Positions 877 to 51,841 are shown, counted from the first letter of the stretch. The stretch: DNA of 64,000 bases from Candidatus Krumholzibacteriota bacterium (GCA_030609325.1 JAUWCL010000009.1:4818-68817), one strand, 5' to 3'. The notes: generated by a model not told the origin, from the letters alone. Translations and numbers: made by a program.

Positions 877-2052
877 ATGAATCGCGTTCTCACCGCAGTT
901 CTCGCAGCCGCAGTTCTCACTTCAGCCACGCTGCCGCTGTCGGCCGGCGAACCGGCCCACGGATTCAAGTTCAGCGGCTTTGTCAAGACCGATGCCATGT
1001 GGGACAACGCCAGGATATACCCTGGCAACTACAGGCTATGGGTCACCGAATACGAGGAGAAGAACGACGCCTTCTACCTGACCGCCAGCGAGACGAGACT
1101 CGGCTTCGATTTCTGGTGGGATGAGGAGACTTACAAGACTGCCGCGAAGCTGGAGTTCGACTTCTACGGCGCCTCACCGGCGGAGAACAAGTCACAGCCG
1201 ATGCTCCGTCACGCATACGTCAAGCTGGTAGGCGGGAACTGGGCGCTTCTCTTCGGACAGACGTGGGACATCATCTCTCCCCTTAACCCGAAGACGGTCA
1301 ACTACTCGGTCAACTGGGCACAGGGCAACATTGGTTACCGCAGGCCGCAGATGCGCTTCACATACAAGATGAAGCCGGGCGAAAAGGCGACTCTGAAGCT
1401 CGATGCCGGTATCTCGAGGAACCTCGGGCACGATCTCGACGGTGACGGATTCAACGACGGAACCGACGCGGGCGTTCCCACCTTCCAGGGACGCCTGGGT
1501 CTCGGCACGCCGATGGGCAGCGAAGGCAAGTTCTCGATCGGCGTCTCGGGGCACTACGGCCAGGAGAAATACGACAACGGCGAGCACGGCACACCTTCCT
1601 GGTCGCTCAACGGCGATCTCGCTATCAAGATCAACAAGCGCGTCGCCCTGCTCGGCGAGTTCTTCATGGGCGAGAACCTCAACCAGTATCTCGGCGGCAT
1701 CCTGCAGGGAGTCAATCCCCTGGGTGATCCTCTTCCCTCCATCGGCGGCTGGGGACTCATCCAGGTCAGGGCGTCGACTAAAACTCTGTTCAACTTCGGT
1801 TACGGCTGGGACAACCCGGACGGAAACGAATGGAAGGTCGACTCGGCCGACAGCTTGACACACACGCTCAGGGACTTCAACTCCGAGGCGTACGGCAACG
1901 TGATGTACAGTCTCACGAAGAATGTCGCCCTGATGTTCGAGGTCGCGTGGATGGAAACGAAGTACAGTGACAAGAAGTACGGAGAACAAATCACGGTTGA
2001 GAGCTACGATGCGCTGAGGTTCCAGTTCGCGGTCAAGGCCAACATCAAGTAA
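877..2052 (+). CDS. outer-membrane beta-barrel protein (porin-like)
   Basis: N-terminal signal peptide (MNRVLTAVLAAAVLTSATLPLSAGE), alternating amphipathic beta-strand pattern rich in Y/F/W/G/N, C-terminal ..FQFAVKANIK barrel-like terminus; strong RBS AAAGGGGGGAG upstream. Confidence 0.55.
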   Translation: MNRVLTAVLAAAVLTSATLPLSAGEPAHGFKFSGFVKTDAMWDNARIYPGNYRLWVTEYEEKNDAFYLTASETRLGFDFWWDEETYKTAAKLEFDFYGASPAENKSQPMLRHAYVKLVGGNWALLFGQTWDIISPLNPKTVNYSVNWAQGNIGYRRPQMRFTYKMKPGEKATLKLDAGISRNLGHDLDGDGFNDGTDAGVPTFQGRLGLGTPMGSEGKFSIGVSGHYGQEKYDNGEHGTPSWSLNGDLAIKINKRVALLGEFFMGENLNQYLGGILQGVNPLGDPLPSIGGWGLIQVRASTKTLFNFGYGWDNPDGNEWKVDSADSLTHTLRDFNSEAYGNVMYSLTKNVALMFEVAWMETKYSDKKYGEQITVESYDALRFQFAVKANIK

Positions 2053-2080
2053 GCTCGGAGAAGGGCGGGCTTATCCTTTC

Positions 2081-2108
2081 GAAACCCAGGAGGAACTGCG
2101 GGTTTTTT
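2081..2108 (+). terminator. possible intrinsic terminator (weak hairpin followed by GGGTTTTTT)
   Basis: AAACCC..GGGTTT arms with T6 run just downstream of the porin stop, between convergent genes. Confidence 0.25.
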
Positions 2109-2200
2109 CAGGGCAAGCCCGTCCTGATTCATCCCGATAATGCTCACACATCCCTGACAGCAGCCAATCGCAATACTGTGAATTTGCACCTCAAGCAGCC

Positions 2201-3136
2201 TTACACTTCTATCAGGGTGTAGTTGTAGCCCGCCTCGAAGCCGGCGCCGCTGTCGAGATATCTCTTTATATGCTGGCCGCAGTTCGAGCCAATGTGGTTC
2301 TCCTCGAGCTCACCTATCGAGACGAGGACCTCATATCCCGCTTCACGCAGGGGCGCGGTGATGTTCTCCGGCTCGATTCCCTCGATTATCGACGACCTGA
2401 CACCGCTGCGGTCGGCCTCGCAGGTCGGATTGACAGGTGTCAGCTTGACGAGAAAATTGTCCGGGTCGAAATGGCGCGAGAGGACCTCCGCCTCCAGGGG
2501 CATCCCCTCGACGAGCGCGAAGTTCAGCGTGATCTTCCGGCCCCCATCGATGAAGAACCTCTCGCCGTAGCGGGCGATCTCCCCGAAATCCCACTTCTTC
2601 GGAGGCATGAGCCAGTCGCGTCTTTCGATGTCCGTAGTATGGATCGAGAACTGCAGCTGGAATCGTCCTTTATATATACCCCTGCCAATATCGAGCAGCT
2701 TCTCGAAGAACTCATCCCTGCCGGCCGGGGCTATGGTCGAGAGGGCGGGCATCAGGCCGGGGGCATCGTATCTCGAGGGCAGTATTTCGAGAACGTCGAG
2801 GACGGCATCGTTCAGGGCAGGCTCACCCATCCTCGCAAGCTGTACCTTGAACTTCGCCGCCGGCACGCGGCGGTCGGGGTAACGGCGATCGATCATGTAG
2901 TCGGTCTGAAAGAGGATCTCGTCCGCTGTCAGCTTCCCGCCGTATGAGCCGCCTGCGTCGCAGAAACGGCAGCCGCCGGGGCATCCGTATAGGGTCGAGA
3001 CAATCAGTACCCACTTCTCCTCGCGCGGCAGCGGCGACTCGACAGACTCGACGAACTCGACGTGCCGGCCTCCTTTCGCCTCGGCGATGTATACCCTCGC
3101 GACCTCGTCGCTACCCGTCCAGGCCTTTACCTTCAT
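2201..3136 (-). CDS. radical SAM domain protein
   Basis: CxxxCxxC motif (YGCPGGCRFCDAG) near N-terminus; last gene of a 7-gene overlapping operon; start overlaps upstream gene by 4 nt. Confidence 0.7.
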   Translation of the reverse strand: MKVKAWTGSDEVARVYIAEAKGGRHVEFVESVESPLPREEKWVLIVSTLYGCPGGCRFCDAGGSYGGKLTADEILFQTDYMIDRRYPDRRVPAAKFKVQLARMGEPALNDAVLDVLEILPSRYDAPGLMPALSTIAPAGRDEFFEKLLDIGRGIYKGRFQLQFSIHTTDIERRDWLMPPKKWDFGEIARYGERFFIDGGRKITLNFALVEGMPLEAEVLSRHFDPDNFLVKLTPVNPTCEADRSGVRSSIIEGIEPENITAPLREAGYEVLVSIGELEENHIGSNCGQHIKRYLDSGAGFEAGYNYTLIEV

Positions 3137-4005
3137 ACTATCTCCATGGCAGCGCGGACACCGTCACCGACGGCTATCGCCGTCTGCCTGTACATGCCGT
3201 TTATCACGTCCCCGGCGAACCGCAGTTTTCCCTCTTCTGCCAGATCGTCGACCCTCCCCGCCAGGCCGGACAACAGCGCGATCTCCCGGGGCACCCTGCC
3301 GATCGCAGATATGACATGATCGGCCGTCATCCTGTTGTGCGGTCCGCAGCCGCTGCCGCAGAGCGACAGGGCGAAGCGTCCTTCGTATTCTTTTGAGATC
3401 TTCTCGACCGAAGCGTTCTCCAACACCGTGATGCGCTCGCACCCCGCTACGCGCCTCATGAGCGCAGCGTTGCAGCGCGGTTTCTCTCCCCTCTGCATGA
3501 TCACGATGTCGTTCTTTTTCGACAGGGTCAGGGCGTAGTCGAACGCCGCGTCGCCCGCACCGACGATCGCCACCGATTTGCCGGCGATATTCCTTATCTC
3601 GATGACGCCGTAGTCGATCCCTCCCTCCGTCTCCTGACTGTCGTACTCGACGCCGTCGAGCGGGACGGGCCTCGTTCCCGTCGCGATGATCAGCCTCGAG
3701 AAATCGGCCTCCGTTTCGGCCTGCACCCTGAAGACGCCTGCGACGTAATCAACGGTAAGAACCTCTTCGGGGCAGACGAGCGCTTCGCTCGCCTCGAGGC
3801 CGGCGGCAAAGAGGGCCGCCAGCTCGGGGCCCTCGACCCCCTTCGGGAATCCGGGATAGTTCTCGACTGTCCCGGCGTTGTAGAGAAGACCGCCCGGCGT
3901 GTCCGCCTCGTAGACGAACGGATAAACCTCGTACCGCGCCAGTTGCAGGGCGGCCGATATGCCGGCCGGGCCGGCGCCGATTATGGCAGTATCGCTCTTT
4001 TTCAT
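3133..4005 (-). CDS. FAD/NAD(P)-binding oxidoreductase, thioredoxin-reductase-like fold (no CxxC redox pair)
   Basis: Two Rossmann dinucleotide motifs (AIIGAGPAG; VAIVGAGDAAFDYAL), ENYPGF motif; start chosen at MKKSD (ATG 4005) with GGAG RBS. The track ORF is N-terminally overextended and this start overlaps the upstream stop. Confidence 0.75.
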   Translation of the reverse strand: MKKSDTAIIGAGPAGISAALQLARYEVYPFVYEADTPGGLLYNAGTVENYPGFPKGVEGPELAALFAAGLEASEALVCPEEVLTVDYVAGVFRVQAETEADFSRLIIATGTRPVPLDGVEYDSQETEGGIDYGVIEIRNIAGKSVAIVGAGDAAFDYALTLSKKNDIVIMQRGEKPRCNAALMRRVAGCERITVLENASVEKISKEYEGRFALSLCGSGCGPHNRMTADHVISAIGRVPREIALLSGLAGRVDDLAEEGKLRFAGDVINGMYRQTAIAVGDGVRAAMEIV

Positions 4006-4670
4006 ATCCGTTTCGTCTCCATCGTCGCGATCAGACTCGAGCATGTGATAACTGCCGCCACGCCGTGCGAGAGGTTGAGCAGCGAAGCCGCGTGGTATTC
4101 CCTGTTGTACGTCGCCGTCCCGTCGGCCGGGACGAATACTGCGAATCCCCTGACGAACGCCGACCGCGCCGTCGTCTCGACGCAGAGGTGAGTCATCACT
4201 CCGGTCACGACGACCTGCTCCGTGCCGGCGGCGCGGAGGATATCTTCAAGCTCTGTCCTGTAGAACGCATCATACTGCGCCTTGTCTACAACAGCCGTCG
4301 AGAGCTCCTCGAGGGTGGGCTCAAGAGCCACATCGCTGCTCCCGGGCTCGAGGATATCGTTCCACCAGATCTTTATCATCCCGGCATTATCTGCCGTGTT
4401 CGAATGTCGCGTCGTGATGACCGGCCGGCCGGCGGCGCGGAAGCGCCCGGCGAGCCCGGCCAGCCCCTTGACGATAGCGTGTGCGTCGGGCACAACGGCA
4501 TGCGACTTCTTATCGAGGAAGAAGGACTGCATGTCGAGGATCAGCAGCGCCGCACGGGATATATCGAACGCAGGGCCGCGGACCGCCGCCTCAGGGATCA
4601 GCCTGCGGGCGTTCTCCTCTATATCGCCTGGAGTCAGATACCTTTCCTTCAACTCGCTAGAACGCTCCAT
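4002..4670 (-). CDS. isochorismatase-family (cysteine) hydrolase
   Basis: Isochorismatase/CSHase/PncA-like signature (ALLILDMQSFF; catalytic Cys region VTGVMTHLCVETTARSA); start and stop overlap neighbours, suggesting translational coupling. Confidence 0.75.
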   Translation of the reverse strand: MERSSELKERYLTPGDIEENARRLIPEAAVRGPAFDISRAALLILDMQSFFLDKKSHAVVPDAHAIVKGLAGLAGRFRAAGRPVITTRHSNTADNAGMIKIWWNDILEPGSSDVALEPTLEELSTAVVDKAQYDAFYRTELEDILRAAGTEQVVVTGVMTHLCVETTARSAFVRGFAVFVPADGTATYNREYHAASLLNLSHGVAAVITCSSLIATMETKRI

Positions 4671-4671
4671 A

Positions 4672-6123
4672 TCAGACGGGCAGCTTCTCGAGGCCGTACC
4701 GCTTCGCCTCGGCCTCCATCAGTCCGGTCATGTGAGTGACGACGGCCGGGTCGAGCGGTTCGGGCTCATGGCTCGAGAGAAGCTTCCCGACCCTCTCGCG
4801 CGCCCTCTCCGACGCGTCCTTCTTACCCTTGGACCGCCACTCTTCGAGCGTGCCTCTTTCGATGACCGGATCGGGGAAGTACGCCTCCTTGCGGAACCAC
4901 TTCATCGTGTGGGGCAGGGAAAGGAAATTCTTCTTCTCGAGACCCTGTTCGATGAGCGGCATCGCTATCGGATCGTCGCGCAGCTCTATACCTTCCGTCA
5001 GCCTCAGCGCCATTCCGCAGATCTCGTGGTCGAGGACGAGCTTCTCGAGGCTCTGGCACGATTCGAAGTCGAGCATGCCCGGGCCGGAGATGTTGTTCAC
5101 GCCCGAGACGGCGGCAATGATCGATCCCATCGCCGTCTCCATCCCAGCCTGGTAGTCGACCGGTTTCGAGTCGCTCAGCCCCATGTAAGCGTGGGTCGGT
5201 ACACCGAGATGCTTGCCTATCTCGGCGTAGGCGCCGTCTATCATCATCGTCTCCACCGCACCCATCGGGGTCGTCCCCTTTCTCATGTCGAAGCAGGCCG
5301 GCGAGCCGCCGTAAATGACCGGCGAGCCTGCGCGGGCCAGCTGATGTATCGTAATCCCGCTGAGGCTCTCCGCGCAGTGCTGCGTGACCGCCCCGGCAAG
5401 GGTGACGGGCGAGGTCGCGCCGGTCAGCGGCATCGAGACAAGCTCGGCGGGAAGGCCGGTGCGGGCGCAGTCGATCAGCGCCTGGCACGTCAGGTCGCTC
5501 CACATCAGCGGGGGCGAGGGGCAGCAGTCGAATATGGCGATCGGTTTCTCCATAAGCGTATCGGCGTCGCCGGAGACGGCGGCGAGCATCTCGTGCATCA
5601 CCCTGAACGCCTCGACCTTGAAGGTACCCGTAACGATCGGCTTGACCGAGTTCTGCAGACCGAGGAAAACCCTGTACCTGTCGGCTATTCCCTCCGGGAC
5701 GTCGCCGGGAATGAGCCCGGTGCTCTGAGCAGCGTAGTTCGGGAGGGCGTCGGTGAGACGCGCATACTTTATCACATCGGCTGTGACCGGTATCCTTGCA
5801 TCGTTTATCTCGGGGTCGAATATCCGCAGCGCCGCCGAGCCGGGATTGAAGTGGATCCTGTCCCCCCCGAGATCCATCGCGACCTCGCCGTTTCGGTCGT
5901 AGACGAGTATCCTCGGTGGTGCCGTCTCGAGCGCCTTCTCGACAACCTGCGAGGGTATCATCACCCGGCCGCCATCGACCCTGGCGCCCGCACCGGTCAG
6001 CAGCTCTATCGCCTCGTCGTTCTCGACAAATACACCGACCTTCTCGAGTATCTCCATCGCCTCGGCAACGATCTTCTTCCTGGTCTTTTTGTCGAACCAG
6101 GTAACGCGCGGGACCATGCCCAT
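4672..6123 (-). CDS. MttB-superfamily (trimethylamine methyltransferase-like, non-pyrrolysine) corrinoid methyltransferase
   Basis: 483-aa uninterrupted ORF with no internal amber codon, MttB-like length and composition (C-terminal KGKKDASERARERV tail is typical); GGAAGGAG RBS; embedded between corrinoid-pathway genes. Confidence 0.75.
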   Translation of the reverse strand: MGMVPRVTWFDKKTRKKIVAEAMEILEKVGVFVENDEAIELLTGAGARVDGGRVMIPSQVVEKALETAPPRILVYDRNGEVAMDLGGDRIHFNPGSAALRIFDPEINDARIPVTADVIKYARLTDALPNYAAQSTGLIPGDVPEGIADRYRVFLGLQNSVKPIVTGTFKVEAFRVMHEMLAAVSGDADTLMEKPIAIFDCCPSPPLMWSDLTCQALIDCARTGLPAELVSMPLTGATSPVTLAGAVTQHCAESLSGITIHQLARAGSPVIYGGSPACFDMRKGTTPMGAVETMMIDGAYAEIGKHLGVPTHAYMGLSDSKPVDYQAGMETAMGSIIAAVSGVNNISGPGMLDFESCQSLEKLVLDHEICGMALRLTEGIELRDDPIAMPLIEQGLEKKNFLSLPHTMKWFRKEAYFPDPVIERGTLEEWRSKGKKDASERARERVGKLLSSHEPEPLDPAVVTHMTGLMEAEAKRYGLEKLPV

Positions 6124-6153
6124 CTCGCATGCTCCTTCCGTTTCATCGCTTTT

Positions 6154-6813
6154 CTATTCTATAAGCCTGTACGGACAGGTCTCCATGTCACAGTTCCTGC
6201 AGGAGCTCTCGCTCCGGAGCCTTACCGGGTCTTCCGCTATGTGCACGGCGAACGATACCGATTTGCGCGGGACCATCATGCTGTTCGCCGTGAGCGTCAC
6301 GCCTATCCTGCCCGCCGGGACGAGTGTAAAGAGTGCTTTCTGCTCCTTCACGTCCCAGTCACCGTATCCGGGGCTGGCCCTGCACGAGGTCTTCAGCCCC
6401 TCCGCCGCCGCGACCTCGTCGATACGATCGTTCGCATAGCGGGCGACCGCCTCGGCCGCCGCCGAACCAATCGCGTCGAGCACTACGGCGGCGAGAATGT
6501 CCCCATCCCTCGACAGCACCGTCACCCTTTCCTCGAGGGCCGGCCCTATCGTGCAGACGCAGAAGGCGACTTTCTCGAGGTCGGTGAACATTTCCGAGCC
6601 GTGCAGGTCGGCCCCTGCCGCGGTCACGCATATCGCCTTCGGAACTATCAGGTCCTTCGATTCCTCGAGCGCAGCATCGAGTGCTTTGGAGACCTTCCCC
6701 ACCGCCGCGGCGGCGGGCGCCCCTATTCCCTCGCCGTTCTTCCTGCCGAGAAGCCTCGACAGCTCATCGCTGTCGGGCTCTATGTCGAATCCCTCGAGGA
6801 TCACTGGTTCCAT
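6154..6813 (-). CDS. MetH reactivation (activation) domain-like protein
   Basis: 219 aa; region ..RASPGYGDWDVKEQ.. and overall layout resemble the C-terminal AdoMet-binding activation domain of cobalamin-dependent methionine synthase. This rests on my recall of that family and needs an HMM check. Confidence 0.55.
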   Translation of the reverse strand: MEPVILEGFDIEPDSDELSRLLGRKNGEGIGAPAAAAVGKVSKALDAALEESKDLIVPKAICVTAAGADLHGSEMFTDLEKVAFCVCTIGPALEERVTVLSRDGDILAAVVLDAIGSAAAEAVARYANDRIDEVAAAEGLKTSCRASPGYGDWDVKEQKALFTLVPAGRIGVTLTANSMMVPRKSVSFAVHIAEDPVRLRSESSCRNCDMETCPYRLIE

Positions 6814-6822
6814 CTGACCTTC

Positions 6823-7719
6823 TCACATCCTGTCTAGGCGGGCCCTTGTGGCCCTTATGAAATCGGGCGTCGTGCCGCAGCATCCGCCGACGGCGTTCGC
6901 CCCCGCTTCGACCATCTTCATCAGATCGTCGGCAAACTCTTCCGGATCCTGCCTGTAAATCGCTTTTCCTCCGGCCATCTCGGGCTTGCCCGCGTTCGGC
7001 TGGAAGAGAAGGGGCGCGTCGGTCAGGGAGCGCATCTCACCGGCGAGGTCTATCATCTCGCCGCTTGTTAAACTGCAGTTCGCTCCGATTACGGCCGCTC
7101 CCTCGGCGACGAGGATCTCCGCCGCCTTTTCGGGCGAATCGCCCATTATAGTAAAATATCCCTTCTTCTTTCTCTCCATCGTCAGCTCGCAGACTATCGG
7201 CTTGTCGGAGACCTCGCGTACGGCGCGTATCGCCTCGACGGCCTCGCTGATATCATACATCGTCTCGATGAGAAAGAGATCGACGCCGCCCCGCTCGAGC
7301 GCCGCGGCCTGCTCCCTGAACGCATTCCTTGCCGCATCGACGGAAAGGGTTCCCATCGGCGGGAAAAACTCACCCGTCGGGCCTATGTCGCCGGCGAGAA
7401 ACCTGCTCCCGGCGATGAACTCGCCGAGCGCCTGTCTCGCTATTTCCGCCGCCCTGACGTTCAGCGCCGCCGTGTCGGGAGCCCCGTCCCGGCATGACGC
7501 GGCGAGCTTGATAGAGGTCGCGCCGAATGTGTTCGTCTGGATGACATCGGCGCCCGCCTCAAGATACTTCGTATGTATATCCAGAAGCACATCGGGGCGC
7601 TTGATGCTCCACTCTTCGGGCGCCTCGCCGTCGGTGAGTCCGACCGCTATGAGCATGCTGCCCATGCCGCCGTCGAATAGCAGAACCTTTTCGCGCAGCG
7701 CGTCGAGAAATCCGTTCAT
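6823..7719 (-). CDS. homocysteine S-methyltransferase domain protein (MetH Hcy-binding module / MmuM-like)
   Basis: Zn-binding signature GGCCGTTP plus Cys in ..GANCSL..; start set at MNGFLDAL (ATG 7719) with GGAGGGG RBS; track ORF start 7833 is an R/G-rich overextension. Confidence 0.8.
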   Translation of the reverse strand: MNGFLDALREKVLLFDGGMGSMLIAVGLTDGEAPEEWSIKRPDVLLDIHTKYLEAGADVIQTNTFGATSIKLAASCRDGAPDTAALNVRAAEIARQALGEFIAGSRFLAGDIGPTGEFFPPMGTLSVDAARNAFREQAAALERGGVDLFLIETMYDISEAVEAIRAVREVSDKPIVCELTMERKKKGYFTIMGDSPEKAAEILVAEGAAVIGANCSLTSGEMIDLAGEMRSLTDAPLLFQPNAGKPEMAGGKAIYRQDPEEFADDLMKMVEAGANAVGGCCGTTPDFIRATRARLDRM

Positions 7720-7751
7720 ATCCCCTCCAGGTCCTTTCCTGATCGCGGCCG

Positions 7752-8393
7752 TCAGCCGGTCTGCCCCTTCACCAGCGCCACCGCCGCGACCGCATCGCCG
7801 GCGTAACCGTCGGCCCCGATCTCCGAGGCCCACTCCTCGCTGCAGGGAGCCCCGCCGACCATCACCTTCACGTCGCCGCGAAGAGACTTCGCCTCGAGCC
7901 GCTCTATGACCCTCTTCTGCCCCGGCATCGTCGTAGTGAGCAGTGCCGATATGGCGATCCAGTCGGCGCCCTTCTCCGCAGCCGTTTCGACGAACTTAGC
8001 CACGGGGACGTCGGCTCCCAGGTCGGTGACCTCGAACCCGTTTGCGGCGAGCATCGTCGCCACGAGCGTTTTGCCTATGTCGTGGATGTCTCCCTCTATC
8101 GTCCCGATGACGACATGGCCGAGCCTGTCCTGTCCGCCCTCGACGCTCTCGAGGGCGGGCCGAAGGACGGCCATAGCCTTCTTCATCGCGTCGGCGCCGA
8201 TAACAAGCTCCGGCAGGAAGAGCTCTCCCTCTTCCCAGAGCCTGCCGACCTCGCGGATCCCCTCTACAAAGCCCCTGTCGATCACCTCGAGGACGGGCAT
8301 TCCCTTCTCGAGAGTCAGTTTCGCGAGCTCCTCGGACTTTTCGGCGTCGCCGTCGATGATCGCCTGCCTGCAGCTGCCCAGGTGTTCCTTCAT
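7752..8393 (-). CDS. cobalamin-binding corrinoid protein (B12-binding domain with N-terminal cap)
   Basis: DxHxxG..SxL..GG pattern: GDIHDIGK, ISALLTTTM, VMVGGA; first gene of the operon. Confidence 0.8.
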   Translation of the reverse strand: MKEHLGSCRQAIIDGDAEKSEELAKLTLEKGMPVLEVIDRGFVEGIREVGRLWEEGELFLPELVIGADAMKKAMAVLRPALESVEGGQDRLGHVVIGTIEGDIHDIGKTLVATMLAANGFEVTDLGADVPVAKFVETAAEKGADWIAISALLTTTMPGQKRVIERLEAKSLRGDVKVMVGGAPCSEEWASEIGADGYAGDAVAAVALVKGQTG

Positions 8394-8675
8394 CCGGAAT
8401 CCTCCGTCTGTGTTTTCTTCATATCCGGCGCACAGGGCGGTTTTTCATTATCCGCGTCAGATATGTGCAGGGAGTGTGGAGTATATCAGATTAGGCGCCG
8501 TGGCCATCAAAAAAAATGCCGGCGGCAAAAAGGGAAAGCTCGGGGCATATACTCACTCCGGGCTCCCTTGCAATGAAGCTGCAGGGTGTGCGGCCGGGCA
8601 CCCCGGTATCTCCTCAGATAACCTTACCCCCTAGAAGGCCGACCAGACTCTTCGGAGGCGGCGCCCGGCCAATAA

Positions 8676-10367
8676 TCAGTTCGCCGCAAATTTCTTCTCT
8701 ATCTCGAACTCGGGCACGATATCGACGGGCAGGCGTGCTTTCCTCAGCTTCAGCAGCGACGCCTCGACATCTGCGTCCATCTTCCCGTACTTTTCCAGAA
8801 GTCCCTTCGCCGCTTCGTAGTCGCCGAGGGCCTGGATCATCAGTATCTTCGCGGAGAGATCCTTCACAGCATCGCGCGTCCCGTCCATATCGACGGACCA
8901 GCGCCCGCTCTTCGGGTCGAAGGAGTAGACACCCTTTTCTCTCATGTAGTTGAAGATGACCATGTTCGCCCTTCCGTGGGCCGACTCGGCCCCGAAACGG
9001 ACGGAGCGGAAGAAACCGGCGAGAAAGGTGACCGCCACGTCCTTTTCAAGCTCGCGGCCGAAGAACCCCTCATCAATAAGATAATAAATGTTATACTCGC
9101 CCACAATATCAGCTTTCGCTTCCTCGACGGATGAGTGGACCTCCTTCAGAGCCTTCTGCGCGGTAGTCTCGGTGCCGTCTTCGAGGGTGATCCTGCCCGG
9201 CCCGAGGCCGTGGGAGAACTCGTGCAGCAGGATGTGGTTGTAGCAGGCGTCGAAGGTCACGTGCTTCAGCTGGTCCTCGGCGATGAGAAGCTCGGCAATC
9301 GGCATGAGGATCTTGTCGAACTTCGCGTGGATGATGTTGCGGAGCATGACCTTCTTGCTCCCCTTTGCCTCATGCACCCTCTCGTCGTTGGGCAGGTTGA
9401 AGGCGAGGGTCTGCACGCCGGCCTTCGTGTCGCCGGCGGAGAAGACCTCGTCGACTACCGAGATCGGCGACTCGGTCCCGCGCTCGAGGTTCTTGTGCTC
9501 CTCGGGAATCGGCAGGTTCTTCTCCATCCTGACGAGATATTTCTTCAGCCCGTCGAGCCGCTTGCTCTCCTTCGGATCCCGGATGCATACGAACGCCTCG
9601 AAGGCGGCCTTGTAGTTGAAGAGTTTGTCCTCGTAGACCTCGTACGGACCGATGGTGACGTCGATCAGGTTGTCGGCAACGTCCATCCAGTCCATATCGC
9701 TCTGGAAGTAGTCGTTCGAACCGAAGGCGTCTGCGCGGGAGCGCAGGAATTTCGCCAGCGACTCGTTTGCCGTGAAGTCGGCCGCGCGGCGCAGGTATCG
9801 CGCGGCATCGTCGAGCAGCTCCTTGTACTCCTTCGAGTAGGGAATTGCTGTGAGCTCGCCCTTTTTCTCCCCCCGCCTTATCACGGTGAATGTTCCCTCG
9901 AACGCCTCGCGGTCAACGGCACGCTTCGCGATCCATTCCTCGAATTCTTTCTTCGTCATGTCTATCGGGTAGAACTCCGCGCCATCAGGCTTGAGGATCC
10001 TGCCGATGAAGGGCTCGTTTTCCTCAATGCGGTCCCAGGGACCGAAATTGATCTTGAAGAACTTGAGCTCTTTCATCTTGTCCTTGCCGATCAGCGCCTT
10101 GCGCAGCCCGACGTTCCCCTTCCAGACCTGCCTGAGAAAGATCTCGTCCATGACTACGGCCGCCCTGTAGATGTTCTCCAGCGCGGCGGTCTCGTTCTTG
10201 TCGAGAAGCTCCCAGGGCACCGAGATCTTCACCGGCGCGTAGACGGCGAGCCTCGCCTCGATCGGCTTGTCGCTCTGTGCGGACACGGTATCTCCTCCCC
10301 CGGCGATGGCGACCAGGCAGGCTGCCGCGACGAATACTGCCGCGGCAGCTGAAAATGCCCTCTTCAT
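8676..10367 (-). CDS. secreted Zn-dependent peptidase, DPP III (M49)-like
   Basis: Signal peptide (MKRAFSAAAAVFVAAACLVAIAGG), HEXXH (LLHEFSHGLG) and downstream EEAKAD second zinc motif. Confidence 0.5.
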   Translation of the reverse strand: MKRAFSAAAAVFVAAACLVAIAGGGDTVSAQSDKPIEARLAVYAPVKISVPWELLDKNETAALENIYRAAVVMDEIFLRQVWKGNVGLRKALIGKDKMKELKFFKINFGPWDRIEENEPFIGRILKPDGAEFYPIDMTKKEFEEWIAKRAVDREAFEGTFTVIRRGEKKGELTAIPYSKEYKELLDDAARYLRRAADFTANESLAKFLRSRADAFGSNDYFQSDMDWMDVADNLIDVTIGPYEVYEDKLFNYKAAFEAFVCIRDPKESKRLDGLKKYLVRMEKNLPIPEEHKNLERGTESPISVVDEVFSAGDTKAGVQTLAFNLPNDERVHEAKGSKKVMLRNIIHAKFDKILMPIAELLIAEDQLKHVTFDACYNHILLHEFSHGLGPGRITLEDGTETTAQKALKEVHSSVEEAKADIVGEYNIYYLIDEGFFGRELEKDVAVTFLAGFFRSVRFGAESAHGRANMVIFNYMREKGVYSFDPKSGRWSVDMDGTRDAVKDLSAKILMIQALGDYEAAKGLLEKYGKMDADVEASLLKLRKARLPVDIVPEFEIEKKFAAN

Positions 10368-10544
10368 GTCTTTCCTCCTGCGTTAAAGATAATATTAGCC
10401 GGATGATTATCGCAAAATATGACACGTCAATCAAGCAGGAGTCTTCCCGGCCACTCTCTTTCCCGTTTCGCCTTGACGGTCTCCGCCGGCCGGTGATAGC
10501 GTGGACCGGTCCATATCACTACCCGAAATCGAAAGGAGCAGGGC

Positions 10545-11774
10545 ATGCTCGAGGATATCTACGGAAAGATCGACGGCTACGGCAACGCGATGAAGGACCT
10601 GCAGTCGAAGCTCACCGCCATTCCCGCCCTCGGACCGGAGAACGACGGTGTCGGCGAGGCGGAGAAGGCGGAATTCCTCGAGAAGTGGATGGCCGACGAG
10701 ATCGGCTTCGACACCGTCGAGCACTACGACGCGCCCGACGACAGGGTTCCGGCCGGGATGAGGCCCAACATCGTCGCCACGGTCAAGGGTGCCTCGAGCG
10801 AGAGGAGGATCTGGGTCATGGGCCATATCGACGTCGTCCCGCCGGGAGACCTCGAGAAGTGGAACACCAATCCCTGGGAGGTCGTCGAGAAGGACGGAAA
10901 GCTCTACGGCCGCGGCACGGAGGACAACCAGCATGGAATAGTGACCCCTCTTTTCGCGCTCAAGGCGATCAAGGAGTCGGGTGCGCCGCTTCCGTACGAC
11001 ACCGGTGTCGTCTTCGTCTCGGCCGAGGAGACGGGGAGCGAGCACGGGATCGGCTACCTGCTCGAGAACAGCGATCTGTTCGGAAAGAACGACTACATCA
11101 TCGTCCCCGACGCCGGCGAGCCCGACGGAGGGATGATCGAGGTGGCGGAGAAGTCGATCTACTGGCTCAAGATCGAGACGGCCGGCAAGCAGTGCCACGC
11201 CTCGACCCCGGCGGCGGGCATCAACGCCCACTTCGCCGGCGCTCACCTCATAACGCGGCTCCACAAGCTCCACGAGATATTCCCGCAGGTCGACGATGTC
11301 TTCGATCCGCCGATCTGCACCTTCCAGTCGACGAAGAAGGAGGCGAACGTTCCCAACGTCAACACGATTCCGGGCGACGATGTCTTCTATCTCGACATGC
11401 GGGTCCTTCCCGGGATCAGCCTCGACGAGGTCGACACCGAGATCAGGAAGATCTGCAACGGGGTCGAGGAGGAGTTCGGCGTGAAGATCACCCTCTCCCC
11501 CACCCAGAAGGAAGAGGCAGCCCCCGCCACGCCCGCTGACGCTCCCGTCGTCAAGGCTCTCGCAGTTGCGATAAAGGACGTGTACGGGATAGAGGCGAAG
11601 CCGATGGGCATAGGCGGCGGGACGGTGGCCGCGTTCTTCAGGCGGGCCGGCTTCCCGGCTGTCGTCTGGTCGAAGATCGAGGACACGTGCCACCAGCCGA
11701 ACGAATACACCACCGTGGAGAACATGATCGGCGACACGAAGGTGTTCGCCAATCTCTTCCTGCAGGAGGGATAA
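10545..11774 (+). CDS. M20-family metallopeptidase/amidohydrolase (ArgE/DapE/ACY1-like)
   Basis: HIDVVP, GTEDNQHG, AEETG metal-binding blocks typical of M20. Confidence 0.8.
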   Translation: MLEDIYGKIDGYGNAMKDLQSKLTAIPALGPENDGVGEAEKAEFLEKWMADEIGFDTVEHYDAPDDRVPAGMRPNIVATVKGASSERRIWVMGHIDVVPPGDLEKWNTNPWEVVEKDGKLYGRGTEDNQHGIVTPLFALKAIKESGAPLPYDTGVVFVSAEETGSEHGIGYLLENSDLFGKNDYIIVPDAGEPDGGMIEVAEKSIYWLKIETAGKQCHASTPAAGINAHFAGAHLITRLHKLHEIFPQVDDVFDPPICTFQSTKKEANVPNVNTIPGDDVFYLDMRVLPGISLDEVDTEIRKICNGVEEEFGVKITLSPTQKEEAAPATPADAPVVKALAVAIKDVYGIEAKPMGIGGGTVAAFFRRAGFPAVVWSKIEDTCHQPNEYTTVENMIGDTKVFANLFLQEG

Positions 11775-25342: not shown

Positions 25343-26731
25343 TCAGCAGGAGATCTTTTTCCTGATATTGTCTACGCGTTCGGAAAAGGCCATATCGTCA
25401 GCCATGAGTCCCTCGATCTTCCTGACTGAGTGAAGAACGGTGCTGTGATCCCGTCCACCGAACCATTTTCCGATCATCACGAGAGAAAGGTCGGTCATCT
25501 CGCGGCAGAGGAACATGGCGATCTGTCTCGCCCTGACCACCCGGCTTATCCTCGTCTTGGCCTTGAGGCTGTCGGCGGGAATGTCGTACTCCCGGGCGGC
25601 TGACTCCATGATTTTCCGGGGTGTGATCCTGGTCTTTTCGGGCGACATGACGATATCCCGGAGCGCCTCTCTCGCGATGCCGACCGTGATCTCCTGACAG
25701 GTAAGGCTGGCGAAGGCTAGGATCTTGATAAGCGAGCCCTCGAGCTCCCTGATGTTGCTGGTGACGTTCTCGGCGATGAACTCTATCACGCTGTCCGGTA
25801 TCTGGATATGCTCGTCATCGATCTTGTTCCTCAGGATGGCGATGCGCGTCTCGATATCGGGAGGCTGCAGATCGGTGATCAGGCCCCACGCGAAGCGGGT
25901 GCGAAGGCGCTCCTCGAGAGTGTGTATATCCTTTGGAGGCCTGTCGCTGGTGCAGACGATCTGCTTGTCGGCGTCGTGCAGGGCGTTGAAGGTATGGAAG
26001 AACTCTTCCTGCATAGCCTCCTTGCCCGCAAGGAACTGGATGTCGTCGATAAGAAGAATGTCAACGTTTCTGTACTTCTTCTTGAATTCCAGGGTCTTGC
26101 TCTTCTGGATAGCGTGGATGAGTTCATTGACGAAGCTTTCCGTCGATACGTACACGATGACCATGTTGGCAAAATCCTTGCGGATCTGATGCCCGATTGC
26201 CTGAATAAGGTGTGTCTTTCCGAGGCCGGACCTTCCGTAGATAAAGAGGGGGTTGTAGGCATGGGCGGGTCTTTCGGCGACGGCTAGCGCACCGGCGTGG
26301 GCGAGCCTGTTGCAGTTGCCTACTATGAATTCATCGAACGTATATCGCTCATTCAGATGGATCTTGTTTGGAAGGACCACGGTCTCGCGGATGATCATCG
26401 ACCTGTCCGGAGATTTATCCGGGGGGCCGACACGCGGAGGTCCCGGAGGCGATGTAAGCTCTACCCTCGTGTTCTTGTCCAGCATATCTCTGGCCACCTT
26501 CTCGATCTTGTCGATGTGGTGCTCATAGAGCCAGTCAACAAAGAAGGGGTTGGGGCCCTCGATTCGAAGAACGCCACCCCCATAACTTACCAGGCGCATA
26601 GGAGAGAACCAGGTCTGATAACACTGATCGTTGACCAGCTCCTTCAGACGCTCGAGCAGGCTCTCACGGAGCTCGAGTATCGATTCAAATCCGCCTGAGC
26701 GGTCGCTTTCCAACACCCTTCCCCCCTGCAT
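25343..26731 (-). CDS. dnaA: chromosomal replication initiator DnaA
   Basis: AAA+ Walker A GRSGLGKTHL, Walker B LLIDDIQF, C-terminal DNA-binding helix-turn-helix. Start chosen at MQGGRV (26731) so that the perfect DnaA box at 26807 lies in the promoter; the track start 26803 is also possible. Confidence 0.9.
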   Translation of the reverse strand: MQGGRVLESDRSGGFESILELRESLLERLKELVNDQCYQTWFSPMRLVSYGGGVLRIEGPNPFFVDWLYEHHIDKIEKVARDMLDKNTRVELTSPPGPPRVGPPDKSPDRSMIIRETVVLPNKIHLNERYTFDEFIVGNCNRLAHAGALAVAERPAHAYNPLFIYGRSGLGKTHLIQAIGHQIRKDFANMVIVYVSTESFVNELIHAIQKSKTLEFKKKYRNVDILLIDDIQFLAGKEAMQEEFFHTFNALHDADKQIVCTSDRPPKDIHTLEERLRTRFAWGLITDLQPPDIETRIAILRNKIDDEHIQIPDSVIEFIAENVTSNIRELEGSLIKILAFASLTCQEITVGIAREALRDIVMSPEKTRITPRKIMESAAREYDIPADSLKAKTRISRVVRARQIAMFLCREMTDLSLVMIGKWFGGRDHSTVLHSVRKIEGLMADDMAFSERVDNIRKKISC

Positions 26732-26806
26732 CTCTTTTTGTGTACCGGCGATACCGGTACACCGGAAATAATGGCTATTCCCTTTTTCCCCCGAATTTCC
26801 CACAAT

Positions 26807-49209: not shown

Positions 49210-50907
49210 TTGAGAAGGACGATACTGGTATTTGCGATTGCGGCCCTGGCCATCGCGGCGGGTTGCGGAGAGAAGGACAACAGCGCTCTGGTGATAGCCA
49301 GGGTCGACACGAGGGAGATCACCGTGGCCGATTTCGAAAAGGTCTCGGAGACGATCGACCAGAAATTCCTGCCCGAGACGGACGACCTCGAAGGCAAGAT
49401 GGTCCTTCTCAAACATATGATAAACAAGGAAATCATGGGCCTGAAGGCGCTGGCGATGGGCTACGATAAGGAGAAATGGTTCGTCGACCTCTGGGCGCAG
49501 TACAAGGGCCCGTTTCTCATAGCGCAGCTGATGGACCAGAAGGTGGCCAGAAAGGTGGAGGTCACCGACGAGGACATCGCCGAATACTACAGGCAGATGC
49601 ACTTCGAGTATACCCTCAGCCAGATCATCGCCGCCAACGAGGACGAGATCATCGAGATCAGGGAGAAGGCTGTCGCCGGTGAGGATTTCGCCGAGCTGGC
49701 GAAGAAATACTCCCTCGGCGTCGGAGCCGAGAACGGCGGATACGTCGGGGCCAATACCGTCGGCAGGATCCACTGGTGGGTGGAGGAGGAGCTCTTCACG
49801 ATGGAGGCCGGAGACATCTCCGGGCCGTTGCGTACTGCGACCGGATGGGCGATCATCAAGCTGCACAGGAAGCGCAAGGTCGATCCTGTGTACGACGAGC
49901 AGATGGCCGCCAGGCGCGTAAGGGCGATCAGGGAGAAGAAGGGGATGGATGCGCTGAAGGCCGAGATCGAGAAGGAGATAGGCCTTCAGTTCTTCACCGA
50001 CGCGGTCAACATCGCATACGACGGTCTTCCCGACGACATCCCGATGAAGGACATAATGACGTACAAGGTCAACCGCCAGAACGCCCCGAAGCTGAATATA
50101 CCCGAACAGTTCATGGACAAGCTGATCTGCCAGTATTCGGACGGCAGCTACACGCTGGCAGATTTCGAGGAGATCTATTACAGGCTGGCGCTGCCCGGAA
50201 GGCCGAGGAGGCAGTACGGGCGCGAGCAAATCGTCCAGACGATGCACAAGATCGTGTTCGACAAGATCCTCCCCGTTTACGCGGAGCAGAAGGCGAAGTT
50301 GCTCGAGATCCCCGAGGTGAAAAAGAACCTCGATTCGAAAAGGGAGATGTTTCTCGTCCAGAAGCTGTACGACGATCAGATCAAGGACGAGGTCACCGTG
50401 ACGATCAGGGATAAGCAGGACTATTACGCCGAGAATCTCGACATACTCGTCAAGCTCGAGATGAGAGACTTCTCCGTCCTTCTCGTCGCCGACCAGAAGA
50501 CCGCCGGCGATATGCACGAGAAGGTGGTCGAAGGGATGAACTTCAGCATGCTGATCGGGAAATTCTCGGTGGACGAAAACGTGAAGGAGAGCTCCGGCCG
50601 CACGGGGCTTCACGTCAAGGGGGACATGGCGGACTACGACGAGGTCGGCTTCGCGCTCGACGGTCCCGGATCGATCTCCGAGCCGTTTCAGACCCCGAGG
50701 GGCTGGGCGGTGATCAAGGTCGAGGAAGTCGAGGACGAGAGGCTGCCGACCTTCGAAGAGGCCGATGCCACGATCAGGAAGACCCTCCGCGAGATCAAGT
50801 ACGAAGAGCATCTGAACAAGAAGCTCGAGAAGTGGCGTGAGGATTACATCATCGAGATAGACAAGTCGGCCCTCGCCAGGGCCGGGCTCAAGAGGACCAG
50901 GCTCTGA
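49210..50907 (+). CDS. PpiC/parvulin peptidyl-prolyl isomerase lipoprotein (SurA/PrsA-like, two parvulin domains)
   Basis: TTG start, lipobox AAGC; parvulin cores (GGYVGANTVGRI..GWAIIKL and ..FQTPRGWAVIKV). Confidence 0.7.
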   Translation: MRRTILVFAIAALAIAAGCGEKDNSALVIARVDTREITVADFEKVSETIDQKFLPETDDLEGKMVLLKHMINKEIMGLKALAMGYDKEKWFVDLWAQYKGPFLIAQLMDQKVARKVEVTDEDIAEYYRQMHFEYTLSQIIAANEDEIIEIREKAVAGEDFAELAKKYSLGVGAENGGYVGANTVGRIHWWVEEELFTMEAGDISGPLRTATGWAIIKLHRKRKVDPVYDEQMAARRVRAIREKKGMDALKAEIEKEIGLQFFTDAVNIAYDGLPDDIPMKDIMTYKVNRQNAPKLNIPEQFMDKLICQYSDGSYTLADFEEIYYRLALPGRPRRQYGREQIVQTMHKIVFDKILPVYAEQKAKLLEIPEVKKNLDSKREMFLVQKLYDDQIKDEVTVTIRDKQDYYAENLDILVKLEMRDFSVLLVADQKTAGDMHEKVVEGMNFSMLIGKFSVDENVKESSGRTGLHVKGDMADYDEVGFALDGPGSISEPFQTPRGWAVIKVEEVEDERLPTFEEADATIRKTLREIKYEEHLNKKLEKWREDYIIEIDKSALARAGLKRTRL

Positions 50908-50929
50908 TCGAAAGGCCCCGGGGAGCGAT

Positions 50930-51841
50930 ATGAACGGCTGCAAGGTTCTCTTCGCCGCGCTCATCCCGCTCCTGCTGGCTGCAGGTTGCGGGGGTGAGGA
51001 TGCGCGCGACGACACGATCCTCCCCCCCGACACCATCGCAAGGGTCGATGGGGAGGTCCTCACCGAGGGCCGCCTCAAGATACTCCTTCCTGCCGGCGAG
51101 AAGACGCCTTTTTCAGTCCCGGAAAAAGCGGTCTGGGTAAAGCAGTGGGTCGAGATGGAGCTGCTCTACGGCGAAGCTGTCAGGAGGGGGCTCCACAACG
51201 ATCCGAGGATCAGGGCGAGGCTGGAGAGTCTCGAGCGGGAGTTCCTCGCCGACCACCTGGCCTTCCTTGAGCTGCGCGAGAGGATCAAGGTCACCGAAGA
51301 GGAGATCGCGGCGTATTTCGAGGATAACAGGGACCAGTACATCCACGAATACAGGGTCAGCCACATAATGGTCGACACGCACGAGGAGGCTCTGCAGGTC
51401 CAGGAGCTGCTGAAGACAAAAAGCTTCACCCTTGTCGCCAACAGGTACTCGGTCGATCCGGTCGCGAGGCGCGGCGGTGACCTCGGCTACCTTACGAAGG
51501 GGAACATGATACCGGCTTTCGAGACGGTGATATTCGAAATGAAGCCGGGAGAGGTCAGCGAGATCGTCCAGTCAGATTTCGGGTTTCATGTAATAAAACT
51601 CGTTGGTATGCGCGAGGCGCAGGTCAGGGTGGAGCTCGCCGAAGTCCGGGAGAGGATATTGAACGGGCTGGTGATGCGCAGGAGGGCCGATGCGTACCGG
51701 GAGCTGATCGACAGGCTTCGCGAGCGGGCCGAGGTGGAATATATCAGCGGCGAATACGCGGAACACATCGCACCGGCGGACACGGCTCCGGCCGATGAAC
51801 CCGCCGATACCGCCGCGGCCGATTCGACGATGGAAGGATGA
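50930..51841 (+). CDS. PpiC/parvulin PPIase lipoprotein (PrsA-like)
   Basis: Lipobox AAGC; parvulin core (YRVSHIMV..GGDLGYLTKGNMIPAFE..FGFHVIKL). Confidence 0.7.
   Translation: MNGCKVLFAALIPLLLAAGCGGEDARDDTILPPDTIARVDGEVLTEGRLKILLPAGEKTPFSVPEKAVWVKQWVEMELLYGEAVRRGLHNDPRIRARLESLEREFLADHLAFLELRERIKVTEEEIAAYFEDNRDQYIHEYRVSHIMVDTHEEALQVQELLKTKSFTLVANRYSVDPVARRGGDLGYLTKGNMIPAFETVIFEMKPGEVSEIVQSDFGFHVIKLVGMREAQVRVELAEVRERILNGLVMRRRADAYRELIDRLRERAEVEYISGEYAEHIAPADTAPADEPADTAAADSTMEG

Follow-up and report, generated by a model that had tools for sequence, protein, structure and literature searches.

A conserved four-gene corrinoid cassette of Candidatus Krumholzibacteriota, predicted to act as a modular, folate-independent methionine synthase

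A stretch of 64,000 nucleotides from a Candidatus Krumholzibacteriota bacterium (GCA_030609325.1 JAUWCL010000009.1:4818-68817), hereafter called the window, carries four adjacent genes on its minus strand at positions 8393-4672. They encode a corrinoid protein (CorP), a homocysteine S-methyltransferase (HcyMT), a MetH-type activation protein (ActD) and a protein belonging to the MttB superfamily, and we designate the set CorP-HcyMT-ActD-MttB as the cassette. Its genes are as follows:

7752-8393, minus strand: CorP, a free-standing B12-binding protein of 213 aa, MttC/MtgC-like (PF02607, PF02310, TIGR02370)
6823-7719, minus strand: zinc HcyMT, 298 aa from ATG 7719, in a reading frame that is open back to GTG 7833 (PF02574)
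6154-6813, minus strand: ActD, a stand-alone, TM0269-like S-adenosylmethionine (SAM)-binding activation protein of 219 aa (PF02965, partial match)
4672-6123, minus strand: non-pyrrolysine TIM-barrel methyltransferase of the MttB superfamily, 483 aa (PF06253)

This gene set had first been proposed from the DNA alone (the sequence-only reading), and open reading frame (ORF) calls together with Pfam and NCBIfam matches place all four genes where that reading had put them. Hidden Markov model scans with PF02607/PF02310, PF02574, PF02965 and PF06253 likewise upheld each of its domain assignments, and the motifs that it quoted are present, namely DIHDIG..SAL..GG in CorP and NC plus GGCCGTTP in HcyMT. 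The genes are tightly packed, with intergenic gaps of 32, 9 and 30 nt (CorP/HcyMT, HcyMT/ActD and ActD/MttB, respectively). The true start of HcyMT is almost certainly ATG 7719 and not GTG 7833, because a Shine-Dalgarno sequence (GGAGGGG) precedes this ATG and independently called orthologues measure about 300 aa.

CorP matches PF02607 with 75.8 bits, PF02310 with 105.1 bits and TIGR02370, the model of methyltransferase cognate corrinoid proteins, with 220.6 bits, which exceeds the cut-off of 215.3. The B12 motif DxHxxG..SxL..GG is present in the window protein and in all of its 43 orthologues (43/43). Among solved relatives, the best match is MttC of Methanosarcina barkeri (175 bits), followed by MtmC (155) and the B12 domain of MetH (108), and CorP belongs to the methylamine-methyltransferase (MttC) type and does not derive from MetH. 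The neighbouring HcyMT (PF02574, 229.5 bits) has its zinc cysteines in NC214 and GGCCG278; the orthologues keep all three without exception (41/41), and 40/41 also have the ET motif. Compared with solved homocysteine domains, it reaches 175 bits with MetH of Thermotoga maritima and 141 with MetH of Thermus thermophilus, versus 74.7 bits with the corrinoid-independent MmuM of Escherichia coli and at most 66.4 bits with BHMT. This comparison supports a grouping of HcyMT with MetH rather than with MmuM/BHMT, with the caveat that its top NCBIfam model is the YitJ-type HcyMT/MTHFR (255 bits, under the cut-off of that model). HcyMT would thus not be of the BHMT/MmuM type, because the match to MetH is stronger and the CorP gene is conserved directly upstream; the clustering with MmuM/BHMT that the sequence-only reading had named as telling against it did not occur (175 bits for MetH vs 75 and 66).

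The third protein, ActD, matches PF02965 over part of its length only, with 35.8 bits against a cut-off of 25. Its closest solved relative is TM0269 of T. maritima (PDB 1J6R; E 1.5e-5 with the single sequence in phmmer and 7.6e-10 with a profile). An AlphaFold (AF2) model of ActD with a pLDDT of 87 and a pTM of 0.84 was compared with known structures by Foldseek, which returned 1J6R first (E 1.2e-10, TMt 0.77) and then the reactivation domains of the T. thermophilus, E. coli and human MetH. Furthermore, the SAM-binding RxxxGY motif of ActD, R145-A-S-P-G-Y150, is invariant among orthologues. Both the fold comparison and the motif lend support to the reactivation in the manner of MetH that had been suggested at the outset, and the predicted function of ActD is the SAM-dependent reductive methylation of Co(II). 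According to Huang et al. 2007, as cited in PMC7857596, experiments showed that T. maritima MetH requires TM0269 as its partner for reactivation.

ActD departs from TM0269 by a C-terminal extension of about 30 residues holding C205-x2-C208-x4-C213, for which the solved TM0269 chain is too short. A HMMER search of 1.84 billion representative proteins (E<=1e-30) returned an ActD family of at least 240 clusters at 50% identity, and 137 proteins among the best 150 matches were full-length, 128 of which possess the Cys tail. In an alignment of ActD proteins with a mean identity of 32%, the three cysteines of the tail show no more variation than the SAM motif does. This invariant C-x2-C-x4-C motif, absent from TM0269, is new here, and it is a reasonable inference that the tail forms a metal or Fe-S site accepting the reducing electron.

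The MttB-family protein matches PF06253 with 302.3 bits, its residues 4-465 covering profile positions 28-488 of 500. It scores 393.5 bits with TIGR02369, under the cut-off of 525, and is therefore not MttB proper; in pairwise comparison, it reaches 229 bits with MtgB of Desulfitobacterium hafniense and 207 bits with M. barkeri MttB. The sequence-only reading had called it non-pyrrolysine, without in-frame amber codon, and indeed its 483 codons run without internal stop and a Leu is aligned to Pyl334 of 7XCL. The MttB-specific Pyl334 and Tyr364 are Leu and Ser in the window protein.

As to the substrate pocket, the glycine betaine ligands of MtgB have been established by mutagenesis and a ligand-bound structure: Y97 and F356 act by cation-pi contacts and R312 and H348 bind the carboxylate (Picking et al. 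2026, PMC13080624). According to the same work, R312, the binder of the acidic group, is conserved in MtcB, MtpB, MthB and MtyB (PMC13080624). In the window protein, the positions Y97/R312/H348/F356 are occupied by S/H/S/E in both the HMMER and the MAFFT alignments, a mapping made at about 30% identity, and two acidic residues stand at aligned pocket positions. All 74 orthologues of the MttB clade share the pattern S-(H/Q)-L-S-(D/N)-F-E, with His or Gln at the R312 position. As aligned, the pocket of this clade seems to differ from that of every characterised member. A carboxylate betaine is an unlikely donor for the cassette, because the four MtgB ligands are replaced by S/H/S/E and R312 is lost; since the replacement is clade-wide, the betaine:homocysteine route that the sequence-only reading had inferred is not supported.

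Two sorts of neighbouring genes were recorded at loci of related MttB proteins. An amino-acid permease of the APC superfamily (L-type/FrlA-like) is encoded directly upstream of the CorP or the RamA gene at three loci belonging to two subclades (L059 4249-5691; L051 and L053 4146-5531), and none of these permeases matches a specific substrate family above its cut-off. At three loci of another lineage, genes for a MazG-family pyrophosphohydrolase and a PF01663 phosphodiesterase/nucleotide pyrophosphatase follow the cassette with overlapping stop and start codons (L088 8123-12248, L089 8111-10617 and L091 8117-11890). The latter neighbours may hint at a phosphodiester-derived, choline-type substrate.

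Taken together, the cassette reads as a chimera whose front end is of the MttB/MttC type, while its back end and its repair module are of the MetH type. It would be a chimera and not simply a split MetH, because CorP is MttC-like while HcyMT and ActD are MetH-like. The description of the locus as a disassembled MetH is therefore apt for HcyMT and ActD and fails for CorP (175 bits with MttC vs 108 with the MetH B12 domain). Pfam scans of about 57 ORFs across the 64-kb window gave no match to Pterin_bind, RACo/RamA, MetH, MetE or flavodoxin, and within these limits the window holds neither a pterin module nor RamA, as had been anticipated. The same scans found in the window none of the pterin-binding MtgD, RamA-like and DUF1638 reactivation proteins of the MtgBCDE type.

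The cassette recurs far beyond this genome. A scan of species-representative genomes with the window MttB protein returned 80 loci at 51-93% identity, and gene order was then counted by tblastn with the window proteins at the 64 loci having at least 2.4 kb upstream. The complete order CorP-HcyMT-ActD-MttB is found at 35/64 loci; HcyMT-ActD-MttB with CorP not detected at 2/64 (Zixibacteria and Gemmatimonadota); CorP and ActD with no HcyMT at 8/64; CorP as the only partner of MttB at 3/64; and MttB alone at 16/64. The complete order spans about ten phyla, including Krumholzibacteriota, Acidobacteriota/Thermoanaerobaculia, Planctomycetota, Latescibacterota and Myxococcota (Myxococcales). The closest genomes are metagenome-assembled genomes (MAGs) of Candidatus Krumholzibacteriota, with an MttB protein 93% identical to that of the window, and an identical 9-kb contig exists in the metagenome run SRR14876856. 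Furthermore, the order is met in metagenome contigs of JGI and ENA, for which gene calls are independent and Pfam matches precomputed. The cassette is a conserved unit and not a chance adjacency, because its order recurs in 35/64 loci and in these independently called contigs. It is also retained around distant ActD homologues that are only about 30% identical to one another: four of six such contexts show the same cassette with 4-nt gene overlaps, one lies beside an apparent CorP-HcyMT fusion and one in an array of MttB, Pterin_bind and CorP genes.

In a neighbour-joining tree that took in D. hafniense MtgB and M. barkeri MttB, the cassette-linked MttB proteins cluster, so that the phylogeny of MttB tracks gene context, and the clade in its entirety stands apart from these two proteins.

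A CorP::HcyMT in-frame fusion from Riflebacteria (L086 4673-6004, 443 aa) was considered as Rosetta-stone evidence and rejected, the HcyMT barrel being without its first 30 residues or so. This fusion is also without the last 15 or so residues of CorP, and may stem from a deletion or from faulty assembly instead of being functional.

Genes of the RamA/RACo type (Fer2 plus RACo domains) were found directly upstream of CorP-MttB in four Aminicenantes-type loci without HcyMT (L072 5480-7243; L032 5412-7160; L051 and L053 5528-7282), and in no cassette locus examined nor in the window. Reactivation in the style of MetH rather than of RamA fits the cassette, because the RamA-type genes are confined to this sister subclade without HcyMT. 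At two of the four loci (L072 and L032) a tail-less ActD follows MttB, alongside RamA, and both activator types can thus co-occur. A Dehalococcoidia-like contig (L087 1-12693) encodes four MttB paralogues, three corrinoid proteins, two Pterin_bind proteins, DUF1638, one Cys-tailed ActD and no HcyMT, and the Cys-tailed ActD heads its MttB-Pterin_bind-CorP array. The ActD family seems to serve MttB-type corrinoid systems in general, because the Cys-tailed form occurs in this HcyMT-less array as well.

What the analysis shows are the identities of the domains, the catalytic motifs, a gene order kept across loci and a neighbourhood free of pterin and RamA genes; which way the methyl group travels, that SAM is used and what the cassette does for the cell is what we infer. 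Our preferred reading, which we hold to be probable, is that the cassette forms a four-component, cobalamin-dependent and folate-independent methyl-donor:homocysteine methyltransferase, in other words a modular methionine synthase. The MttB-family protein would first load the Co(I) of CorP with a methyl group, its source being a methylated amine and probably no carboxylate betaine. From methyl-Co(III), HcyMT would then pass this group on to homocysteine, so that methionine is formed and Co(I) restored. Cofactor oxidised to Co(II) would be restored by ActD through reductive methylation with SAM, ActD replacing in this role the ATP-dependent activase of the RamA type. That one corrinoid protein is shared by an MttB-family donor enzyme and a homocysteine module is plausible, because there is a genetic precedent in MtgBCDE of Ruegeria pomeroyi.

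A wider proposal is more tentative, and we put it forward as a possibility less likely to be right than wrong in its entirety. It holds that Cys-tailed PF02965 proteins would be a distinct and widespread group of metal-binding, possibly Fe-S, SAM-dependent reactivases of free-standing corrinoid proteins, replacing the ATP-dependent RamA in MttB-type systems whether the acceptor is homocysteine or tetrahydrofolate (THF), and that the cassette would make methionine independently of folate, with methyl groups from a methylated amine that is not a betaine, such as a cation of the choline type or a protonated methylamine whose handling needs no pyrrolysine.

Several points weigh against the reading of the cassette as a folate-independent methionine synthase. 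MttB proteins 66-71% identical to that of the window also occur alone (L021 and P0120). No transporter or substrate-processing gene is conserved beside the cassette across phyla, its neighbours being lineage-specific. Outside the 64-kb window, the genome could have genes for a pterin-binding partner, for RamA or for a canonical MetH, and a canonical MetH is also encoded in Ca. Electryoneota MAGs that have the cluster (Williams et al. 2022, PMC9324843). In the literature, we found no biochemical study of the cassette and no genetic data for any of its members. Lastly, a phmmer search for pterin domains over all related loci (about 8 kb) retrieved only the canonical MetH of locus L061, from which the query was taken, and this single query would miss distant proteins of the MtgA/MtqA type. 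The MetH in question (L061 13092-16523) is full-length, with 1143 aa, and is found 3.6 kb downstream of an MttB homologue that belongs to the same clade and stands alone.

In a first alternative, CorP, HcyMT and ActD would be the general split methionine synthase of the cell, normally supplied from 5-methyl-THF by a separate pterin-binding protein whose gene lies elsewhere, and the MttB homologue would be an auxiliary donor or would chiefly send methyl groups towards THF for catabolism. We judge this unlikely, although likelier than the other alternatives considered. Indeed, the corrinoid protein of R. pomeroyi serves both glycine betaine demethylation and methionine synthesis with its genes scattered, the split MetH genes of Phaeobacter inhibens are dispersed too, and the same type of ActD is found in the Dehalococcoidia-like contig together with MttB, Pterin_bind and CorP without HcyMT. 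The search for pterin genes, moreover, covered the 64-kb window and about 8 kb around related loci rather than whole genomes. Against this alternative, MttB closes the cassette at its 3' end without exception in 35 loci and is translationally coupled, and within the stretches covered no pterin-binding gene lies near any cassette locus (phmmer only) or in the window (Pfam).

A second alternative keeps the chemistry and changes its purpose: a methylated amine in ample supply would be stripped of its methyl groups, either to be rid of them or to exploit them, and homocysteine, methionine and SAM would be the sink, instead of the pathway serving to supply methionine. The sister subclades of the MttB clade without HcyMT do look catabolic, with RamA-CorP-MttB plus the APC permease in some and the MttB/Pterin_bind arrays of L087 in another, and hydrolase genes come after MttB in a lineage-specific manner (isochorismatase-family here; MazG plus PF01663 in L088, L089 and L091). 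Such a sink would, however, need stoichiometric regeneration of homocysteine, for which no SAM-cycle genes exist in the cluster, and there is one MttB per cassette rather than the multi-copy arrays typical of methylotrophs, so that we consider this purpose improbable. Least probable of all is a B12-dependent betaine:homocysteine methyltransferase whose donor is glycine betaine or some further betaine with a carboxylate (proline betaine, carnitine or trigonelline), which is in line with the quaternary amine substrates of all characterised non-pyrrolysine MttB-family enzymes, the MtgB score and the Leu that MtgB also has at the pyrrolysine site, and is opposed by the clade-wide S/H/S/E pattern in 74 orthologues as read from an alignment at about 30% identity, the loss of the acid-binding R312 and the two acidic residues at aligned pocket positions.

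Around the cassette, the operon and its upstream region comprise the following features:

8394-8675, minus strand: upstream intergenic region of 282 nt, presumed promoter and 5' untranslated region
4002-4670, minus strand: isochorismatase-family cysteine hydrolase (PF00857, 141.4 bits) with the catalytic-Cys motif THLCVETT
3133-4044, minus strand: thioredoxin-reductase-like FAD/NAD(P)H flavoprotein without CxxC (PF07992, 73.6 bits; TIGR01292, 125.9 bits, under the cut-off of 343)
2201-3136, minus strand: RlmN/Cfr-like radical SAM protein of 311 aa (PF04055, 25 bits)

The hydrolase gene begins 1 nt past the MttB stop codon, and Krumholzibacteriota loci alone retain it downstream of the cassette. 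The flavoprotein, whose matches to thioredoxin reductases do not exceed 84 bits, is encoded by a gene that overlaps both of its neighbours, by 4 nt in the case of the radical SAM gene; a role for it as electron supplier is speculative. The radical SAM protein has a CxxxCxxC motif at C52/C56/C59 and a C-terminal NCGQ, and is without an equivalent of RlmN Cys118, its best solved relative being RlmN (6FZ6, 37.9 bits). PDB searches with the hydrolase, the flavoprotein and the radical SAM protein gave generic family matches only. The flavoprotein and radical SAM genes are conserved in Krumholzibacteriota loci, and in L031 the pair sits divergently upstream of the cassette. We treat the hydrolase, flavoprotein and radical SAM genes as lineage-specific accessories, because they are conserved only in Krumholzibacteriota and L031.

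The cassette is predicted to be co-transcribed with these three genes and translationally coupled to them in this lineage. On the minus strand, a scan of 1900-8800 revealed no terminator-like site between 8393 and 2201, and no sigma-70 consensus. A riboswitch or leader RNA upstream of the operon was searched for and discarded for lack of any Rfam match (at the gathering threshold over the whole window, and at E<=1 over 8330-8720); the fold of the upstream region, with a z-score of -1.08, is no better than that of shuffled sequence. In a MAG 93% identical to the window, an insertion of about 2.3 kb separates the M49 peptidase gene from CorP (L002 1908-3776), where the window has a spacer of only 282 nt; it encodes a 622-aa protein with 'GG.TW' repeats that appears BNR/Ycf48-like from the look of its sequence.

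Further along the window, positions 17780-38332 are the chromosomal origin region, where dnaA (25343-26803, minus strand) is some 17 kb away from the cassette. On its minus strand, this region carries gyrA, gyrB, a dciA-like gene, recF, dnaN and dnaA, and on its plus strand rnpA, yidC, jag, mnmE, mnmG, rsmG, parA and parB; GC content dips to 0.51-0.54 and the GC skew changes sign at about 26-27 kb. Three consecutive genes for PPIC-type peptidyl-prolyl isomerases (SurA/PrsA-like) lie downstream of mfd at 49210-53193 (plus strand). At 60966-62357 (plus strand), a single ORF of 463 aa begins with a TatD_DNase domain (268.8 bits) and ends with a Radical_SAM domain (44.9 bits), an unusual pairing. 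Real ORFs were told from antisense ORFs by a G1-C1/T2 codon-position score. An 851-aa ORF at 4282-6837 (plus strand) was dismissed as spurious, being antisense to real genes and a product of the high GC content (60%), and so was a 420-aa ORF at 10431-11693 (minus strand), antisense to an M20 peptidase gene at 10545-11774 (plus strand).

If the cassette works as we propose, many uncultivated anaerobic lineages, among them Krumholzibacteriota, Acidobacteriota, Planctomycetota, Latescibacterota and Zixibacteria, would be able to turn homocysteine into methionine with no need of methyl-THF, using an environmental methylated amine directly. B12 availability, methylamine turnover and the synthesis of sulfur amino acids would then be linked in sediments and groundwater. 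Likewise, the non-pyrrolysine mttB genes of metagenomes, which are now routinely counted as markers of methylotrophy, would be read differently. ActD is predicted to offer, besides RamA, a second solution to the re-reduction of free-standing corrinoid proteins. Points of particular interest are the donor specificity of the MttB clade, the proposed functioning of the cassette without a folate module and the role of the ActD Cys motif.

The sequence-only reading had taken this combination of modules to be uncharacterised, which holds in so far as the literature yielded no biochemical study of it; the cluster itself had already been described in silico. Indeed, Williams et al. 2022 (Environ Microbiol 24:2576, PMC9324843) reported the exact cluster in Ca. 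Electryoneota MAGs and its presence in diverse bacteria, with the MttB homologue in a clade apart from MtgB and MttB, and hypothesised a novel corrinoid-dependent methionine synthase whose donor was left unnamed, having come independently to the hypothesis preferred here. The set of modules is identical (non-pyrrolysine MtgB/MttB homologue, HcyMT, corrinoid protein and SAM-binding activation protein). The phylum differs, being Krumholzibacteriota here, and the main text of that in silico study is without an analysis of the active site, of the reactivase or of the neighbourhood. The present finding is thus a cassette in a new phylum, of a kind already recognised in silico and close in logic to an experimentally studied system.

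This system is that of R. pomeroyi, for which genetics assign one corrinoid protein both to a glycine betaine methyltransferase of the MttB family and to a methionine synthase in split form (Mausz et al. 2025, PMC12478193); its MtgBCDE also has a pterin-binding MtgD and RamA/DUF1638 reactivation (PMC12478193). The split MetH of P. inhibens and its RamA-like reactivation were defined by Price et al. 2018 (PMC5764234). Common to these systems and to the cassette are an MttB-family enzyme and a stand-alone MetH-type homocysteine module that share one free-standing corrinoid protein. While theirs have dispersed genes, MtgD, reactivation by RamA-like DUF4445 plus DUF1638, no PF02965 protein and glycine betaine as the donor, the cassette is a compact operon with no pterin or RamA gene nearby, an activator of the PF02965 type and, as aligned, a non-betaine pocket.

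The closest relative of ActD in sequence and fold is found in the TM0268/TM0269 pair of T. maritima, a MetH without activation domain and its separate activator, with which ActD shares the RxSPGYGD motif; TM0269, however, serves a fused Hcy-folate-B12 MetH and its chain is without the Cys extension carried by ActD. With MtgB/MtgC/MtgA of D. hafniense and MtpB/MtcB/MtyB/MthB of Eubacterium limosum, the cassette has in common a non-pyrrolysine MttB-family MT1 and a cognate MttC-like corrinoid protein, whereas those systems use a pterin-binding methyl-corrinoid:THF MT2 and activation of the RamA type, and keep the Arg312 that is lost here. Finally, the canonical MetH of E. coli and human shares with the cassette the homocysteine-zinc module, the B12 module with DxHxxG-SxL-GG and the SAM-dependent reactivation module, which it unites with a pterin module in a single polypeptide; here, they are encoded by separate genes with no pterin module nearby, and the B12 module is nearer to MttC.

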